From sequence record OR083247.1: DNA of 64,000 bases; one strand, given 5' to 3'. The notes under the pieces are model-generated. The model did not search any database, was not told where the DNA came from, and saw only the letters and a list, made by a program, of their open reading frames with translations. This document shows positions 3,527 to 43,429 of the stretch, in pieces. Made by a program: the position numbers and the translations under genes. How positions within the stretch are numbered: position 1 is the stretch's first letter; each line of letters starts with the position of its first letter. The stretch comes from Escherichia phage Bf23.

Positions 3527-4210
3527 TCATCTATTTTTCTTAATACTTTTAGGATCTTTCCCTGTTAGGGACTTATACCTTTTCCTTAATCCAGTATCAG
3601 ACAATCCTAGTTCTTTGGAGGCACGAATCCAGGAATATTTAGATACCCAGTACTCTATTTGCTCCACAGTAATATCTGGATTTATAGTTATCTCTTTAGG
3701 AGTACATGATTTACAGTGTGTTGCTCTTGAGCTAATTTCGCAGTGACAAATAGCACACGTATTTACAGTCCTTTCTGTATACCTGCCAATATTTTTGCCT
3801 GCATGAGTAGGTGTTAGTGCATGGCAATTTGGGCATAGGAGGGCTAAGTTATCCCATTCATTATTATAGTGATTTCCATCCTTATGTTCAAGTTCTAAAG
3901 GAATTGGTTTATCTAACCAACTTTCTAAGCCACAACTCTCACATTTATGTGGTTTTAGCCCCTCGTTAAGAATTTTATTCTTTAGTTTATAGGAAGAAAT
4001 AGGGCTGCCGTTATATAAATACTCTGTTGCAGACTTATATTTATTATCATACTGCCTATTCGCAGGAATAACTACTATTCCTAGTTTTCCTAAATATGCT
4101 TCCAAAGTGTTCGAGGAGCAGGATAGCATTCTTGCTATCTCTGCTTTAGATTTTCCCTGAGCTATCCACTGAGCTATTTCTTCCTTTCTATCTAGTATAT
4201 CAGTTCTCAT
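3527..4210 (-). CDS. HNH homing endonuclease (227 aa) with N-terminal HTH
   Basis: HNH core ELEHKDGNHYNNEWDNLALLCPNCHA plus additional Cys clusters; free-standing gene beside the tRNA cluster. Confidence 0.75.
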   Translation of the reverse strand: MRTDILDRKEEIAQWIAQGKSKAEIARMLSCSSNTLEAYLGKLGIVVIPANRQYDNKYKSATEYLYNGSPISSYKLKNKILNEGLKPHKCESCGLESWLDKPIPLELEHKDGNHYNNEWDNLALLCPNCHALTPTHAGKNIGRYTERTVNTCAICHCEISSRATHCKSCTPKEITINPDITVEQIEYWVSKYSWIRASKELGLSDTGLRKRYKSLTGKDPKSIKKNR

Positions 4211-4531: not shown

Positions 4532-4560
4532 ATTATACAGAATTTATAAGCATTTAGCAA
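4532..4560 (-). promoter_or_regulatory. early promoter (-35 TTGCTA, 17-nt spacer, -10 TATAAT)
   Basis: Consensus hexamers on the minus strand inside an AT-rich block. Confidence 0.6.
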
Positions 4561-4568
4561 ATGAATTT

Positions 4569-5003
4569 TTAGAAAAATTCACTAGCGATCAAAGCAGTTG
4601 TTTTACCGTCATAACGTCCAGGAAATTCTGCCTTAATAGTTTTCATTAATAGAGCTTTGGTAATACCTGGGTTTAATTTAACCAGTTCTGCAAAATACTC
4701 ACGAATTTCAGTTTCAGTCAGTTGACTTGGCTGATACTCTTGCAGCATGGAATAAAGCAGTTGCTCATAGTCCACATCAGTAGGAACTTTCGTACCAACT
4801 TTAATGGCGCGCTGTTTTGCATTTTCTAGAGCCTTAATCTGAGCTTTCAGATAGGCTACAAACTCGATTCGAGTAACAATGTCTTTATCAATACGTTGCA
4901 GGTCGCCAATCATGGTCTGAAGATTAAGTGCCCGCTCTTTATCACCGTGAGTACGTGCTAGACTAAGCAGTCCACGAAGGGTCATTAGGATATTTTCACC
5001 CAT
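4569..5003 (-). CDS. hypothetical protein (144 aa)
   Basis: ORF track. Confidence 0.5.
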   Translation of the reverse strand: MGENILMTLRGLLSLARTHGDKERALNLQTMIGDLQRIDKDIVTRIEFVAYLKAQIKALENAKQRAIKVGTKVPTDVDYEQLLYSMLQEYQPSQLTETEIREYFAELVKLNPGITKALLMKTIKAEFPGRYDGKTTALIASEFF

Positions 5004-5169
5004 TATTTCATCCCCAATGCTTGGTTAAAAGATTGTTCTGTCATAACTGCTGAGACTTTGGCGAAATCAAACTTTTTAGGGTTCGTAGTGATCTCAGCAA
5101 CGTTGGAAGTTTTAACAGTTTTCGTAGTACGAATACCGCGAGTGTTAACACCAATGACGATCAAGTTCT

Positions 5170-5859
5170 TCATAAACTACCCCCTTTCTGTACTATTGTG
5201 GCCCCCTCTTTCAAGAGGAATTCTTCTGCCTCTTCGGGGGAAATATTAAAGTATTCAGTAGATCCAGCAAATCCACTATAACCACAATTATGACTTTTAA
5301 AATACATATGTGCCTTCTTCTCTAAAGCAAGGGTTTCTGATTTAGAAGAGCTACCATATGTATAGTGGCCATAATACTTAGCTGTGGGATCCCCGGATGC
5401 AGTAATCAAATCCCTTAACCTACGAGCAGGAGAATTAGTAATTCCTATTTTTGTACCTAATGAACTAGTTATTATATAAAGTATCCCACCATCGCTCCAT
5501 ATATTGGAGCACTCAGGGCATCTATTACCCATATTTTTTATGGCACTAAAAGTGGTAATCCATACATGCCCCTTACTACAAGTAAGTTGTAGCTTAGAGT
5601 TATTATTTATATATTTGGTAATGGTGTAATATCCTAAACTACGCAAATATTCAGATACTTGTTCTTGAGTGTACCTAACATTTCCATAGCAGTAGGGACA
5701 ACCTCTTCCGTTCCTAATATTATTTAGGGTAGCATTAAAAACATGTCCATAGGTGCAACAGAACTGCATTTTAGTCCTAGTATTAGTATACTTATCATTA
5801 GTGAATAAGCCTCTACTAACTAGGTAACTCTCTACTTCTTCTTGTGTTAATTTTTTCAT
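5170..5859 (-). CDS. T5orf172 / GIY-YIG-like domain protein with N-terminal tandem zinc-ribbon repeats (229 aa)
   Basis: Two repeats of C..GH..(N20)..CP(Y/E)C followed by GGILYIIT..KIGITNSPARRLRDL. Confidence 0.55.
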   Translation of the reverse strand: MKKLTQEEVESYLVSRGLFTNDKYTNTRTKMQFCCTYGHVFNATLNNIRNGRGCPYCYGNVRYTQEQVSEYLRSLGYYTITKYINNNSKLQLTCSKGHVWITTFSAIKNMGNRCPECSNIWSDGGILYIITSSLGTKIGITNSPARRLRDLITASGDPTAKYYGHYTYGSSSKSETLALEKKAHMYFKSHNCGYSGFAGSTEYFNISPEEAEEFLLKEGATIVQKGGSL

Positions 5860-5870
5860 TTAATAAATTT

Positions 5871-6338
5871 TTAAGTTTTAGTGACAACAGGTTTATAAAA
5901 CGTATGTCCCTTAATCTTAGTTGTTTTCTTAAACTTCTTTGTCCAGTAAGGTTTATCTTTACCACTATGGAAGTATAAAGCTCCATGTGTAGGATCTTGT
6001 GGTAAATCAACGTAGTATATCACTCTAGCTAAATTCTTGGCGGTTTGCCAAGCCTCATCGGTTTTATCAACTTTTGGCCTCTTAGATACCCAAGAGAACT
6101 GGTTAGACTGATATACTACTTTACAGTAGGAATCTGGAAATTTGCCGGAGTTTACACGGTTTTTAGTAACATGTGCAATCGCCGTCATTCCCTTTATGCC
6201 CTCACCACGACTTTCGAAATAGATATTTTTAGCAATGCAATCTATTTCTTTTGCATCGTGCGATGCCTGACTACTAAAGCTGAAGGTAAGGGCAGCTACT
6301 AAAAGCAAAGCTGCCTTCATTCGTTTTACTCCTGCCAA
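5871..6338 (-). CDS. secreted SleB/CwlJ-like cell-wall hydrolase (155 aa)
   Basis: N-terminal signal peptide (hydrophobic LLLVAALTFSFSSQA), then IYFESRGEG..G..AIAHVTKNR resembling the Hydrolase_2 core. Confidence 0.5.
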   Translation of the reverse strand: MAGVKRMKAALLLVAALTFSFSSQASHDAKEIDCIAKNIYFESRGEGIKGMTAIAHVTKNRVNSGKFPDSYCKVVYQSNQFSWVSKRPKVDKTDEAWQTAKNLARVIYYVDLPQDPTHGALYFHSGKDKPYWTKKFKKTTKIKGHTFYKPVVTKT

Positions 6339-6643
6339 TCGTATTCAATACGATTAGGGTTTTCTTTGTACCCCAAGTCAAGCAAATCATTACGCATAGT
6401 TTGCTTAGCTACGGGATTCGAGGTTACTAGTACCACTTTCTTTGGTCTCTGCCCAAATTCTAAGAGTAAACGAAGAATTTGATAACCTTCCATACCATCT
6501 ACAGCCAAATCGTTATCGAAATAAACAAAATGGCCAGTGGTATCAGTCTTATTCAGAAACTCAACAGCGGCTTCTGGGGTTCGAATGATAATGTCCATTC
6601 CGTGAAGATTACGCACATCATCAATCAAAATGTGAAAAGTCAT
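6326..6643 (-). CDS. CheY-like receiver (REC) domain-like protein (105 aa)
   Basis: HILIDDV .. FDNDL..DGMEGYQILRLL .. VVLVTSN pattern resembles receiver-domain acidic pocket, phosphoacceptor and T/S positions. Confidence 0.4.
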   Translation of the reverse strand: MTFHILIDDVRNLHGMDIIIRTPEAAVEFLNKTDTTGHFVYFDNDLAVDGMEGYQILRLLLEFGQRPKKVVLVTSNPVAKQTMRNDLLDLGYKENPNRIEYDWQE

Positions 6644-6673
6644 AATAGCCTCGTTTCATCAATTTAAAAATAT

Positions 6674-6702
6674 ATTATACAGAGAACTTAATAAATTAGC
6701 AA
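6674..6702 (-). promoter_or_regulatory. early promoter (-35 TTGCTA, 17-nt spacer, -10 TATAAT)
   Basis: Consensus hexamers upstream of the 6326-6643 gene. Confidence 0.6.
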
Positions 6703-7085
6703 ATACATTTTTAAATTGTGAAACTAGTAAACCGATAAACAGCCTAGAGGCGCCACAGGCCATATCTTACGAGCCATGTACCTTTGATCTAGGGTTTGAA
6801 TCATCAACGAATACTTTGCATCTTTTAGCTTTAGAAGTTTAGAAGTTTGAGTTCTTTAAACTTTTCAGCTTTCATACTTAAATGTTGATCTTTGAAGTTG
6901 TGTCGGTAATATCAACGACTCTTTGTTTTTACGTGTCAGATTAAATGTCTGATGTAATAAACATAATCTCCAATAGATTATACTTTATAGTATGGTTAGC
7001 GGTCTTATTTAACCTCGTATTTCAACCGCTGCTGCGAGGTAAGATGCTTGGGCTTTCGTCTACCGATTTACTAGCTTTTAAATTA

Positions 7086-7724
7086 TTACTCTACTTCAAT
7101 GAAAGTAGAGGCGTTAGACTCGGACAGAACAAAATCAACATTTGTTGCAAAGTCCTGGTATTCCTCGTCATGCTGTTTAATCAGCTTCTCCAGTTCCAGC
7201 GGATCAATCAAGAATGGAGTATTCTTGAGTTCCAACAGGTTGAGCTGCATTTTAACTTCATCTTCGGAAGTTTTCTTATCGCGGGTAGCCATGCTATCCT
7301 GCAAACGCTCATATTTAGCATCAAACTGTGCTTTCTGCGTATTAAACTTAACCGTAGCGGCATGGAACTGCTTACGCATATTAGCCAGCAACTGAGCTTT
7401 AAGCTCCATAGAACGTTTAGCTTCAATTGCTTCTGCAACAGTCATTTTACGAGAACCAATCTCAACGATTGTTTCCGCATTGCTCTTAATCAAAGCAGCT
7501 TTGATTCGGTCACGCTGGGACATCATATCCAGCAGAGACTGGAAATCTGTCTTAATACGATTAGACAGATCTTCTACTTCGATTGCAGCGCCAACTACAA
7601 CCTGGTTTTTATCCTTACCCTCACCAACAGCGATCAGAAGCTGTTGTTCAGTAGCTTTACGGATTTTAGCTTCCAGAGATTTGATGGTTGCCAGAGCACG
7701 AGTTTTAGAAATACGAGTGGTCAT
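7086..7724 (-). CDS. hypothetical coiled-coil protein (212 aa)
   Basis: Charged heptad-rich sequence; co-directional with neighbours; preferred over the overlapping plus-strand ORF 6945-7742. Confidence 0.55.
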   Translation of the reverse strand: MTTRISKTRALATIKSLEAKIRKATEQQLLIAVGEGKDKNQVVVGAAIEVEDLSNRIKTDFQSLLDMMSQRDRIKAALIKSNAETIVEIGSRKMTVAEAIEAKRSMELKAQLLANMRKQFHAATVKFNTQKAQFDAKYERLQDSMATRDKKTSEDEVKMQLNLLELKNTPFLIDPLELEKLIKQHDEEYQDFATNVDFVLSESNASTFIEVE

Positions 7725-7776
7725 TGTTTCTTCCTTATATGAAGTTTAAGATTTGAATTTATTTAAAGTTGGCCTA

Positions 7777-7959: not shown

Positions 7960-7999
7960 ATTTGTTTTCCTTTTATTGTTTTCTCAAATTTATGAATAT

Positions 8000-8028
8000 A
8001 TTATACAGAATTTTGGAGCCGGAAGCAA
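8000..8028 (-). promoter_or_regulatory. early promoter (-35 TTGCTT, 17-nt spacer, -10 TATAAT)
   Basis: Consensus hexamers on the minus strand. Confidence 0.6.
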
Positions 8029-8029
8029 A

Positions 8030-8731
8030 TCAAATTTTCATTTTTTCGATCATAGCTGCAACACAATAGCTCTCAACTAAGGCATCAAATGCTGGGTCGT
8101 GCTTAACCGGATAGATTCCATAACGAATGGTGTCCATCTTCTCCATCTTAGCTTTTGCCCAGCTAATCCCCTCTGCTTCTAGGTCTTTGTAACTATAACC
8201 AGCCTGCATCCAGAGATTGCGGAGAGATCGAACATTACCCAAATTCCAGAATTTCCACGGAATTATTTCCTCATGGGTTCCAGCATGAAACGTATTTGCA
8301 GAATAGATAGTCATATCAAATTCTGGGCCATTACCGTAGTATAGAGCATTTTCACCTAGAGCCAACTCCATAATGTTTTTAGCCATAGAATAAGCTGCAT
8401 AGTTAGAGCCGAGCTTATTAGTACAGTGATGTTTACCGTCTTGAAAAGCAATCAGCTTTGGATTGCATTCCTTCATAGCTTCCATAATATGTAGAGCTGA
8501 TGGGCTATTTTTAGCTTGATCCATCCAGAATGCTAGGGTAGATGCCGTAACTTTAGCTCCAGAATTAAGCTGATCTTGTACATCCAAAGTAACAAACACT
8601 AGATCAGGATCTTTATCAATTCCATGCATAGCCACAAAAGCGAAAGAAGGCATTACGATATGAGTAGTACCGCAATCTCCCGGAGTTCCTAGAGATTCAA
8701 TATCTAACATACCAAATGGTTTTACTTTCAT
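8030..8731 (-). CDS. DEDDh-type 3'-5' exonuclease-like protein (233 aa)
   Basis: Exo I-like MLDIESLG, Exo II-like N..PEFD, Exo III-like HDPAFDA. Confidence 0.5.
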   Translation of the reverse strand: MKVKPFGMLDIESLGTPGDCGTTHIVMPSFAFVAMHGIDKDPDLVFVTLDVQDQLNSGAKVTASTLAFWMDQAKNSPSALHIMEAMKECNPKLIAFQDGKHHCTNKLGSNYAAYSMAKNIMELALGENALYYGNGPEFDMTIYSANTFHAGTHEEIIPWKFWNLGNVRSLRNLWMQAGYSYKDLEAEGISWAKAKMEKMDTIRYGIYPVKHDPAFDALVESYCVAAMIEKMKI

Positions 8732-20377: not shown

Positions 20378-20567
20378 TGGCTTAAATGCTGCGCTGGAAA
20401 ATGCATTGATGCAGCAGTGGGAGGCTGGATATAAGGATGGGGTTGAATCTTGTGCGAAAATAATGGATATAATGGCTAATTCTGTAGTTGGGAAAGCCCA
20501 TCCAGAAGTATCTGATATACTCCATAACCTTAGTAAAAACTTCAGAGAGCAGGTGAAAAATGCGTAG
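20346..20567 (+). CDS. hypothetical protein (73 aa)
   Basis: ORF track; overlaps the previous ORF in another frame. Confidence 0.4.
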   Translation: MAFSKPMLPDNGLNAALENALMQQWEAGYKDGVESCAKIMDIMANSVVGKAHPEVSDILHNLSKNFREQVKNA

Positions 20568-21396
20568 ATTAATTATTATTAGTGGTGCAGGTTTGAGTGT
20601 TGAAAGTGGTGTACGAGCCTTCCGTACTGATACTGCTAGTGGTAAAGCATTGTGGGATGATTATGACTTAGAAGAGGTATGTAATATTCATGCCTTTCGT
20701 GGTAATTTTTATCATAAAACCCACACGTTTTACAACAAACGTCGTGAAGAGTTAGAAACTGTTGAACCCAATCTTGCACACCTGCGTATTGGTGAATGGT
20801 ATAAGAAATATCCGGGTCAAGTAGTAAACTTAACTACCAACGTTGATGACCTTATTGAGCGTGCTGGCGTTCCACATAGTGACATTCTGCACATTCATGG
20901 GTATTTAAAAGAGATTGTTGTAGCTGATAGCTACAATAGTAGCAATAAACGAGTTATTGATGTTGGGTATAACTCTATTGACCCAGATGATTATAAATGG
21001 GTTAAACCTAATGTAGTCTTCTTCGGAGAACATGCTCCAGCATATGCAGAAATGTACAATGTTTTTGATGGTATTACCAGTCAAGATATGATCATTGTGG
21101 TTGGTTGCTCTAACCAAGTAATTAACTTCTACTGGGAATTATTCCCTGTTCTTAATCTGACTGCTGCAAAACTTATGGTAGTTAACTACTACGATAGTGC
21201 CTTAGCGGCGGAACCAGGCTATCAAGGTATGACTCGTAGTGATATGTACCAACTGGAAGATCGTGGTATTCCTTACTGGAGTAAAGGTGCGGTAGATGCT
21301 TTCAGTGACCCTGGTTTTATTGCTCGTGTGGAAGCTCATCTAGAGGGTAGGCCTTATGTGCCGGAGAGAAGGGGAAACAGATATGTCCATAGTTAA
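20560..21396 (+). CDS. Sir2-like (sirtuin-family) NAD-binding protein (278 aa)
   Basis: N-terminal GAGLSVESGVRAFR matches the sirtuin NAD-binding signature GAGIS.ESGI..FR. Confidence 0.65.
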   Translation: MRRLIIISGAGLSVESGVRAFRTDTASGKALWDDYDLEEVCNIHAFRGNFYHKTHTFYNKRREELETVEPNLAHLRIGEWYKKYPGQVVNLTTNVDDLIERAGVPHSDILHIHGYLKEIVVADSYNSSNKRVIDVGYNSIDPDDYKWVKPNVVFFGEHAPAYAEMYNVFDGITSQDMIIVVGCSNQVINFYWELFPVLNLTAAKLMVVNYYDSALAAEPGYQGMTRSDMYQLEDRGIPYWSKGAVDAFSDPGFIARVEAHLEGRPYVPERRGNRYVHS

Positions 21397-42946: not shown

Positions 42947-43429
42947 ATGGCTGTAGATAGTAGAGATAAAGGTAAACGTGGTGAATATCAGGTAAGAGAT
43001 ATTCTACGTGAGCGTACAGGTCTTGAGTGGGAACGTGTTCCTGGCTCTGGTGCTTTTGGCCAGAGCCACGGACTGAAAGGTGACATCTACCTTCCACCAC
43101 AAAGTGGACACATTAGTAAATACTGCTTCGAAGTTAAGTGGTATAAAGATGATAATATATCAAGTAATTTATTTAATGTTGGTGAATCCACTCTAGAGAA
43201 GTGGTGGCAGCAGTGCTCACGTGAAGGTGAGCAGATGAACTCCAAACCTGCATTAATATTCAAAAAAGACAGAGGACAGTGGTTAATAGCTTTGGATAGC
43301 TCAGACCCGATGGTTGACAACTTAATGAGTCGTACCCATATGGTGTTAAATAAGAAAGGCATGGAAATCGTAATCGGTTTATTTGAGCCGTGGCTACATA
43401 ATGCATCTGTTGAGGACTTAATTAAATAA
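42947..43429 (+). CDS. hypothetical protein (D14-position, 160 aa), possibly nuclease-like
   Basis: ORF between the SbcC-like gene and the flap endonuclease. Confidence 0.5.
   Translation: MAVDSRDKGKRGEYQVRDILRERTGLEWERVPGSGAFGQSHGLKGDIYLPPQSGHISKYCFEVKWYKDDNISSNLFNVGESTLEKWWQQCSREGEQMNSKPALIFKKDRGQWLIALDSSDPMVDNLMSRTHMVLNKKGMEIVIGLFEPWLHNASVEDLIK

Follow-up and report, generated by a model that had tools for sequence, protein, structure and literature searches.

What does a free-standing phage protein with the features of a two-component receiver domain do, and does it take part in phosphotransfer at all? The question is raised by a 105-residue product encoded within 64,000 nucleotides of Escherichia phage Bf23 (sequence record OR083247.1; this whole stretch is referred to as the window). 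A preliminary description, made from the DNA letters, had read the product as a CheY-type receiver with its own promoter that could sink or hijack host phosphorelays. The open reading frame (ORF) exists as claimed, running from an ATG at 6643–6641 to a TAA at 6328–6326 on the minus strand, which had been left unstated. Its product is a member of the cREC family (PF20274), and we tentatively favour the view that it would act as a small phosphoesterase rather than as a signalling switch.

Family membership and predicted fold

In a Pfam search the protein matched PF20274 (cREC_REC) with an E-value of 9.2e-15 and a score of 55.5 bits (gathering cutoff 27), residues 4–87 covering positions 2–86 of the 88-position profile. 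The preliminary description had named a search with the hidden Markov model (HMM) of Response_reg (PF00072) as a check on its reading; no match to that family was returned even at E ≤ 10, PF20274 being found instead, and the only other Pfam family at this threshold was PalB_C, at chance level (E 0.26). PHROG 1479, a group listed with function unknown, was also matched (1e-29), and NCBIfam and PADLOC gave no match to the protein. PF20274 is carried by all 77 homologs found, and the name ‘cyclic-phosphate processing receiver domain-containing protein’ is already in use for the protein in the GenBank record of phage HMD-P5 and in several NCBI and UniRef entries. The gene is a member of an already catalogued family, the function of which is still predicted.

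The definition of the cREC family goes back to a comparative-genomic study, in which the domain was described as a divergent receiver never seen in histidine-kinase systems, was linked to RNA ligases, to WYL domains and to NAD+/ADP-ribose enzymes, and was predicted to process cyclic ADP-ribose (cADPR) or 2′,3′-cyclic phosphates (Iyer, Anantharaman, Krishnan, Burroughs and Aravind, Viruses 2021; PMC7824862). A profile search of 1.84 billion representative proteins gave at least 400 cREC clusters (50% identity) at E ≤ 1e-3, nearly all of them stand-alone proteins of about 100 residues; N-terminal extensions are rare and lack Pfam domains, save for one that has an HNH endonuclease domain. The Bf23 protein resembles these relatives in its full-length HMM match, in its signature residues, in being a stand-alone accessory or early phage protein of about this size and in having no kinase partner. 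Unlike most of them, it shares with the rest of the T5 clade an Asn at position 44 (DNDL), where His (DHDL) is commoner, and a conserved C-terminal YKENPNRxEYD extension. The neighbours also differ from the contexts described for PF20274, consisting of a SleB-like hydrolase gene and a tRNA region rather than an NAD+/ADP-ribose enzyme or RNA ligase.

An AlphaFold2 model built on a 59-sequence alignment reached a predicted local distance difference test (pLDDT) score of 94.4 and a predicted template modelling (pTM) score of 0.87. Within the model, DSSP assigned β-strands to residues 4–7, 18–20, 39–42, 69–72 and 100–102 and helices to residues 23–32, 53–62 and 77–90, giving the topology β1-loop-β2-α-β3-α-β4-α-β5. 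A CheY-like α/β core is retained; the complete (βα)5 topology of receivers is not reached, residues 8–17 at the position of helix α1 forming a confidently predicted loop and helix α5 being absent after the last strand. Foldseek found nothing in the PDB at E ≤ 1e-3, and its best alignments, with template modelling (TM) scores of 0.55–0.59, were to receivers, which are the closest structural neighbours of the model. Among the BFVD viral models, the named top matches were mostly ‘cyclic-phosphate processing receiver’ proteins from diverse phages. The flavodoxin-like, CheY-like fold anticipated in the preliminary description is therefore predicted, in the form of a trimmed, minimal receiver.

In some T5-like phages (P0078; JLBYU43, NC_105512 39673–39969; Kenya-K38, OQ291035 39565–39861), cREC forms the C-terminal part of a 273-residue HNH_3 protein annotated ‘HNH endonuclease’, which is either a true fusion or a read-through annotation. 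A tandem pair of cREC copies lies in L087 (IMGVR_UViG_3300040801_002623, 7995–8634), one of them intact (MWLLIDDVRDL...DHDLG...VTANP) and the second degenerate, without the DD and DxD motifs and possibly an inactivated paralog. A profile search of PDB sequences also returned TAL-effector repeats at E 1e-16. These were rejected as an artefact, the E-value of each single stretch exceeding 100 and the scores being summed over the repeats; the TAL repeat LTPEQVVAIASNxGGKQALE resembles the cREC segment LPKKVVLVTSNPVGRENME by chance, a coincidence that is relevant to automated annotation.

Residues of the putative active site

The cREC family was compared with ten aligned canonical receivers (CheY, Spo0F, PhoB, NtrC, OmpR, NarL, FixJ, CheB, KdpE and Spo0A), the invariant columns of which (D13, D57 and K109) matched the literature numbering. 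Alignment of the two profiles with hhalign gave a probability of 77% and an E-value of 2e-5, with an eight-residue deletion in cREC at α1, and an HMM of the ten receivers produced weak matches in just three of 210 family members. The receiver spacing described earlier stands in part. The IDDVR, FDNDL and VTSN segments are present and align as had been guessed (Table 1), but the domain is not a canonical CheY-type receiver, given the absence of a PF00072 match, of α1 and α5, and of the lysine. The ‘later lysine’ of the preliminary description was not borne out, the CheY position K109 falling on N95 within YKENP. The acidic pair, the Asp at the acceptor position, the Gly that follows and the Thr can all be aligned with those of CheY and Spo0F, four of the five catalytic residues of receivers being kept and the lysine lost; unlike these proteins, to which the identity is 9–22%, cREC has no kinase context.

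Residue frequencies were counted over the 179 family members that are less than 55% identical to the Bf23 protein. D8, D9 and G53 are present in every one of them, as is either Thr or Ser at position 74, and nearly the same holds for D43 (178), D45 and N76 (177 each), R21 (176) and R11 (169, with Lys in eight more), at a mean column identity for the family of 26%. The Bf23 protein has the complete PF20274 signature (D8, D9, R11, R21, D43, N44, D45, G53, T74, N76 and P77). Position 44 is occupied by His in 110 members and by Asn in 60. No conserved lysine was found near β5, where positions 93–96 are mostly gaps; the YKENP region is conserved only within the T5 clade, and three family members end right after helix α4, before β5.

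In receivers, the positions two residues after the acceptor Asp (D+2) and after the Thr (T+2) tune the hydrolysis of the phosphoryl group. The resemblance between the active sites of CheY and of HAD enzymes is established, the DxD motif of HAD phosphatases supplying the nucleophile and the acid/base Asp. Judged by its sequence, cREC would be a mechanistic analogue of these phosphatases, with D43-x-D45, an acidic cluster expected to bind Mg2+ and a Thr/Ser; unlike them, it has a receiver-like fold and no sequence match to them, such that it may be said to work like a HAD phosphatase and not to belong with them. With R11, R21, D45 and N76 fixed, the pattern of residues would read as the active site of an enzyme, not as that of a switch.

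These residues bear directly on the proposal that the protein takes phosphoryl groups from host histidine kinases or from acetyl phosphate and so drains or rewires two-component signalling. The receiver-like fold and the four retained catalytic residues speak for such a sink, and the invariant Asp at D+2 could speed dephosphorylation, as a sink would need. Helix α1 is the main surface on which receivers dock with kinases and histidine phosphotransfer (Hpt) proteins, and in cREC it is missing together with α5, the β5 lysine and any match to Response_reg. Furthermore, the 876 ORFs that lie within 5 kb of cREC in 50 loci include no histidine kinase (EnvZ-like) and no canonical receiver, in agreement with the earlier survey of the family (PMC7824862). 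The near-identical active sites in phages of Enterobacteria, Vibrio, Aeromonas and uncultured hosts would also fit a universal small substrate better than a set of host kinases, and the invariant residues would suit an enzyme. Because the docking helix, the lysine and the association with kinases are all missing, we consider a role as sink or hijacker of host phosphorelays highly improbable.

Gene context, conservation and candidate substrates

Family loci were collected by contig look-ups and by pattern scans of genome and viral collections with three subgroup alignments, and were reduced to 40 groups with few neighbours in common. Pfam families were assigned to 252 neighbours (at least 115 residues, within 3 kb, one locus per group). 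The recurrent ones are Metallophos (at least four), AAA_33 kinase-like proteins (four), RtcB, HNH, thymidylate synthase, DUF932 and PP2C (three each) and DUF2779 and WYL (two each), and no kinase-system family is among the most frequent. PNKP ligase, Thg1, queuosine salvage, HD_4, Rv2179c-like and Tad3 proteins occur as single cases. The RtcB RNA ligase lies zero to two genes from cREC in three of the 40 groups, as confirmed on three unrelated contigs, and Metallophos and RtcB genes adjoin cREC in several phages. Genes for tRNAs are found within 8 kb of cREC in 11 of the 40 groups, eight of which have clusters of 3–20 tRNAs.

At the nucleotide level, positions 5800–7000 of the window are 98% identical to T5, DT57C and Gostya9 (T5-like, Tequintavirus). 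The ORF corresponds to T5.084 (YP_006912), its product is 100% identical to Gostya9 gp122, and the gene is intact in 493 phage records, of which about 440 are T5-like and about 50 are KVP40-like Vibrio phages. Comparison with 17 distinct T5-like alleles gave ratios of nonsynonymous to synonymous substitution (dN/dS) of 0.00–0.15 at dS values of up to 0.63, indicating a translated gene under strong purifying selection. In a genome-wide dCas13d knockdown screen (CRISPRi-ART) of T5 in E. coli DH10b (PMC11879866), T5.084 was scored ‘Not Fit’ (mean fitness −4.20, p 0.88) and is not one of the 17 genes listed as Fit; in a single sentence the supplementary note of that study calls T5.084 and T5.090 ‘Fit’, which its own table, where both are ‘Not Fit’, contradicts. 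Dispensability in the laboratory host, combined with strong constraint in nature, fits a conditional accessory role.

The TTGCTA-N17-TATAAT promoter of the preliminary description is present as described, on the same strand as the gene, and matches 10 of 12 consensus positions. The motif alone is not above chance, seven promoter-like sites being found in a 4-kb region against 11.7 ± 3.5 in shuffled sequences, and such matches are not rare in DNA as AT-rich as this. Independent support is given by the T5 reference (NC_005859), which carries an annotated promoter at the homologous position (43067–43141). The SleB-like gene begins 5 nt past the cREC stop codon and has its GGAG within the 3′ end of cREC, which places the two genes in one transcription unit.

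It appears plausible, and we propose tentatively, that cREC is a phosphoesterase of receiver fold that would be catalytic on RNA 3′ ends bearing a cyclic or linear phosphate, likeliest on tRNAs damaged by host nucleases. The analysis shows that the protein belongs to the family, and it shows the fold, the pattern of residues, the promoter, the conservation and the contexts of the gene; catalysis, substrate and biological role are what we infer here. The domain would have kept a predicted Mg2+-binding pair (D8/D9), the Asp at the nucleophile position (D43) and T74; it would have lost the kinase-docking α1, α5 and the lysine, and gained the invariant R11, R21, D45 (which would give the DxD geometry of HAD enzymes) and N76. 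Such a site would serve catalysis rather than signalling, in a metal-dependent manner and via or next to an aspartyl-phosphate at D43, and the phosphate acted on would be that of a nucleotide or of an RNA end. First among the candidates is the 2′,3′-cyclic phosphate or 3′-phosphate that host ribonuclease defences leave on tRNA or other RNA, and the second is a cyclic phosphate derived from ADP-ribose. Damaged tRNA is the most plausible substrate because of the RtcB and tRNA contexts and because the gene borders the tRNA region of T5. In T5-like phages the gene has its own early promoter at this border. It can be dispensed with in a laboratory host that is poor in defences, and its product would thus be an accessory for repair or counter-defence that is needed conditionally.

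The role proposed here, on 2′,3′-cyclic or 3′-phosphate RNA ends beside ligases, is like that of the 2H and Metallophos phosphoesterases and of the phosphatase domain of T4 Pnkp, from all of which cREC differs in having an unrelated fold and unrelated catalytic residues and an activity that is predicted only. A bolder version would make cREC proteins the first purely enzymatic domains of receiver fold, in which D43, the HAD-like Asp+2 and the two family-specific Arg residues would open or remove the 2′,3′-cyclic or 3′-phosphates of tRNAs cleaved by the anticodon nucleases of host defence, the ends being then handed to RtcB, phage-encoded in some lineages and provided by the host in T5. This more specific scheme is possible, if doubtful.

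Several considerations weigh against an RNA-end phosphoesterase. RtcB can use 2′,3′-cyclic ends directly, so that no further enzyme for end healing is strictly required. In T5-like phages no RNA ligase or polynucleotide kinase gene adjoins cREC, the immediate operon partner being a secreted SleB-like hydrolase without an obvious link to RNA repair. At the level of BLAST clustering, no neighbour family occurs in more than three of the 40 locus groups, and hence no single conserved operon partner can be claimed. The proximity to tRNA genes is suggestive only: of 20 large viral contigs, five have at least three tRNAs nearby and seven at least one, where the upper-bound chance expectation is about three (Poisson p 0.18 and 0.03). 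The active-site geometry, moreover, is deduced from alignment only, and position 44 is Asn in the T5 clade and mostly His elsewhere; were the His catalytic, the T5 clade may act differently. A literature search on cREC, PF20274, T5.084 and T5 receiver domains returned no experimental work, biochemical or genetic, on any member of the family.

The same catalytic-looking active site would also suit the hydrolysis of a nucleotide immune messenger, by which cREC would shut down signalling-based defence. Candidate messengers are the cyclic ADP-ribose isomers of Thoeris/TIR, the cyclic oligonucleotides of CBASS and type III CRISPR, and the cyclic CMP and UMP (cCMP/cUMP) of Pycsar. Processing of cADPR or cyclic nucleotides was proposed for the family from its links to NAD+/ADP-ribose enzymes and WYL domains (PMC7824862). 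Cellular homologs are uncommon, a subgroup pattern giving 11 loci in 185,579 species genomes; they have as neighbours the Cas4-like DUF2779 nuclease, a WYL regulator, SIR2, and an IetA-like ATPase or PP2C/kinase. In addition, the Thoeris inhibitor Tad3 is encoded within 3 kb of cREC in one phage locus, the window itself encodes a SIR2 protein, and the gene is dispensable in a defence-poor host. However, the SIR2 gene of the window is distant and on the other strand (Table 1), the WYL and DUF2779 contexts stem from a small set of related betaproteobacterial elements, neighbours with a role in RNA repair occur at least as often, PADLOC has no model that matches cREC, and no experiment supports the idea. 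We regard the anti-signalling role as unlikely, though it deserves serious attention.

In the betaproteobacterial contigs L007, L012, L013 and L020, cREC, DUF2779 (Cas4-like nuclease) and the WYL regulator form a recurrent cassette, with SIR2, an IetA-like AAA ATPase and PP2C/kinase nearby in places; PADLOC matches no system there.

A third possibility is that cREC is not catalytic and acts by binding, either as a nucleotide sponge or as a modulator of a host or phage protein, for which the co-transcribed SleB-like hydrolase, or RtcB (which archease assists), are candidate partners. Small stand-alone proteins encoded in the accessory regions of phages often act as sponges or inhibitors, RtcB is adjacent in some loci, and a SleB-like gene adjoins cREC both in T5-like phages and in the unrelated viral contig L093 (7420–7836), the two SleB-like proteins being 32% identical. 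Yet an absolutely conserved metal-binding acidic triad, together with Asp+2 and Thr+2, in a family of such low mean column identity is typical of catalysis, and the conserved residues, being those of a metal-phosphate site, make a binder the less likely. With its signal peptide the SleB-like protein would be periplasmic; cREC lacks such a peptide, and SleB adjacency is absent from most lineages. A binding role is improbable on these grounds. Functional coupling between cREC and the SleB-like hydrolase was likewise set aside, in view of that signal peptide and of an adjacency confined to two lineages.

The surrounding locus and the wider interest of the family

The features of the locus are collected in Table 1, together with the positions in CheY that hhalign aligned with those of cREC.

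Table 1. Features at and around the cREC gene in the window, with CheY equivalents of individual residues as aligned by hhalign.
Feature	Position	Strand	CheY equivalent	Remarks
cREC gene, 105 residues	6326–6643	−		PF20274, PHROG 1479; ortholog of T5.084 / Gostya9 gp122
Codons D8-D9-V10-R11	6611–6622	−	D8/D9 = D12/D13	Acidic pair after β1 and family-specific Arg
Codon R21	6581–6583	−		Family-invariant Arg at C-terminal end of β2
Codons D43-N44-D45-L46	6506–6517	−	D43 = D57; D45 = N59	Phospho-acceptor position and invariant Asp at acceptor+2 (D+2)
G53			G65	
Codons T74-S75-N76-P77	6413–6424	−	T74 = T87; N76 = E89	Thr at end of β4 and invariant Asn at Thr+2 (T+2)
Codons Y92-K93-E94-N95-P96	6356–6370	−	N95 = K109; P96 = P110	β5 region, expected site of receiver lysine; lysine missing
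Sigma-70-type early promoter	6674–6702	−		−35 TTGCTA 6702–6697, 17-nt spacer, −10 TATAAT 6679–6674
Shine-Dalgarno GAGG	6649–6652	−		5 nt 5′ of cREC ATG; read from sequence
SleB-like cell-wall hydrolase gene	5871–6320	−		Pfam Hydrolase_2; signal peptide MKAALLLVAALTFSFSSQA; downstream of cREC
T5orf172/GIY-YIG-type homing endonuclease gene	5170–5859	−		Downstream of SleB-like gene
DUF7616 gene	5003–5173			Downstream of cREC
Weak YqeY-like protein gene	4569–5003			Downstream of cREC
Gene for 212-residue protein	7086–7724	−		No assigned function; upstream of cREC; annotated in T5-like records
Rv2179c-like 3′-5′ exoribonuclease gene	8030–8731			1.4 kb upstream of cREC
DUF7022 gene				Upstream of cREC
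SIR2 gene	20560–21396	opposite to cREC		14 kb away

Downstream of cREC, the SleB-like gene is called ‘endolysin’ in several records, and its product has a clear Sec-type signal peptide. The homing endonuclease gene that follows, before DUF7616, encodes 229 residues with a T5orf172/MUG113 GIY-YIG-type domain and CapR and DUF4379 zinc-finger domains; it has no counterpart at this place in T5 or Gostya9 and is present in Salmonella phage HMD-P5. Between the YqeY-like gene and the tRNA genes, which start at 2574, 3.7 kb downstream of cREC, a minus-strand gene at 3527–4210 encodes a 227-residue protein with an N-terminal GerE/HTH and an HNH motif (ELEHKDGNHYNNEWDNLALLCPNCH), probably another mobile endonuclease. 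A second, identical TTGCTA-N17-TATAAT promoter-like site is found on the minus strand at 4532–4560, just 3′ of the YqeY-like gene and facing the tRNA region.

On the 5′ side of cREC, the intergenic stretch of about 440 bp (6644–7085) bears the promoter and has no convincing ORF, and Rfam gave no match at the gathering score within it. A GGCGCC at about 6752–6757 resembles the nick-site consensus, GCGC, that the T5 record gives. The 265-residue ORF on the plus strand at 6945–7742 is almost certainly spurious, being antisense to the gene at 7086–7724 and having a low-complexity, Leu/Phe-rich translation. Subunits of an NAD-dependent ligase lie further on in the window, by homology to Gostya9.

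The interest of cREC lies in the biochemistry of the family and not in this instance of it. If the proposed activity is real, a domain known almost solely as a phosphorylation switch also exists as a free-standing enzyme, and the enzyme class would be widespread in large phages, among them T5-like, KVP40-like, Aeromonas and many uncultured ones. A new class would be added to the enzymes of RNA repair or of anti-signalling counter-defence. If the more specific scheme of tRNA-end processing holds, cREC would form a new class among the RNA end-healing enzymes and add a new layer to the tRNA-based counter-defence of T5, a phage that offers a genetically tractable model for the function of cREC.

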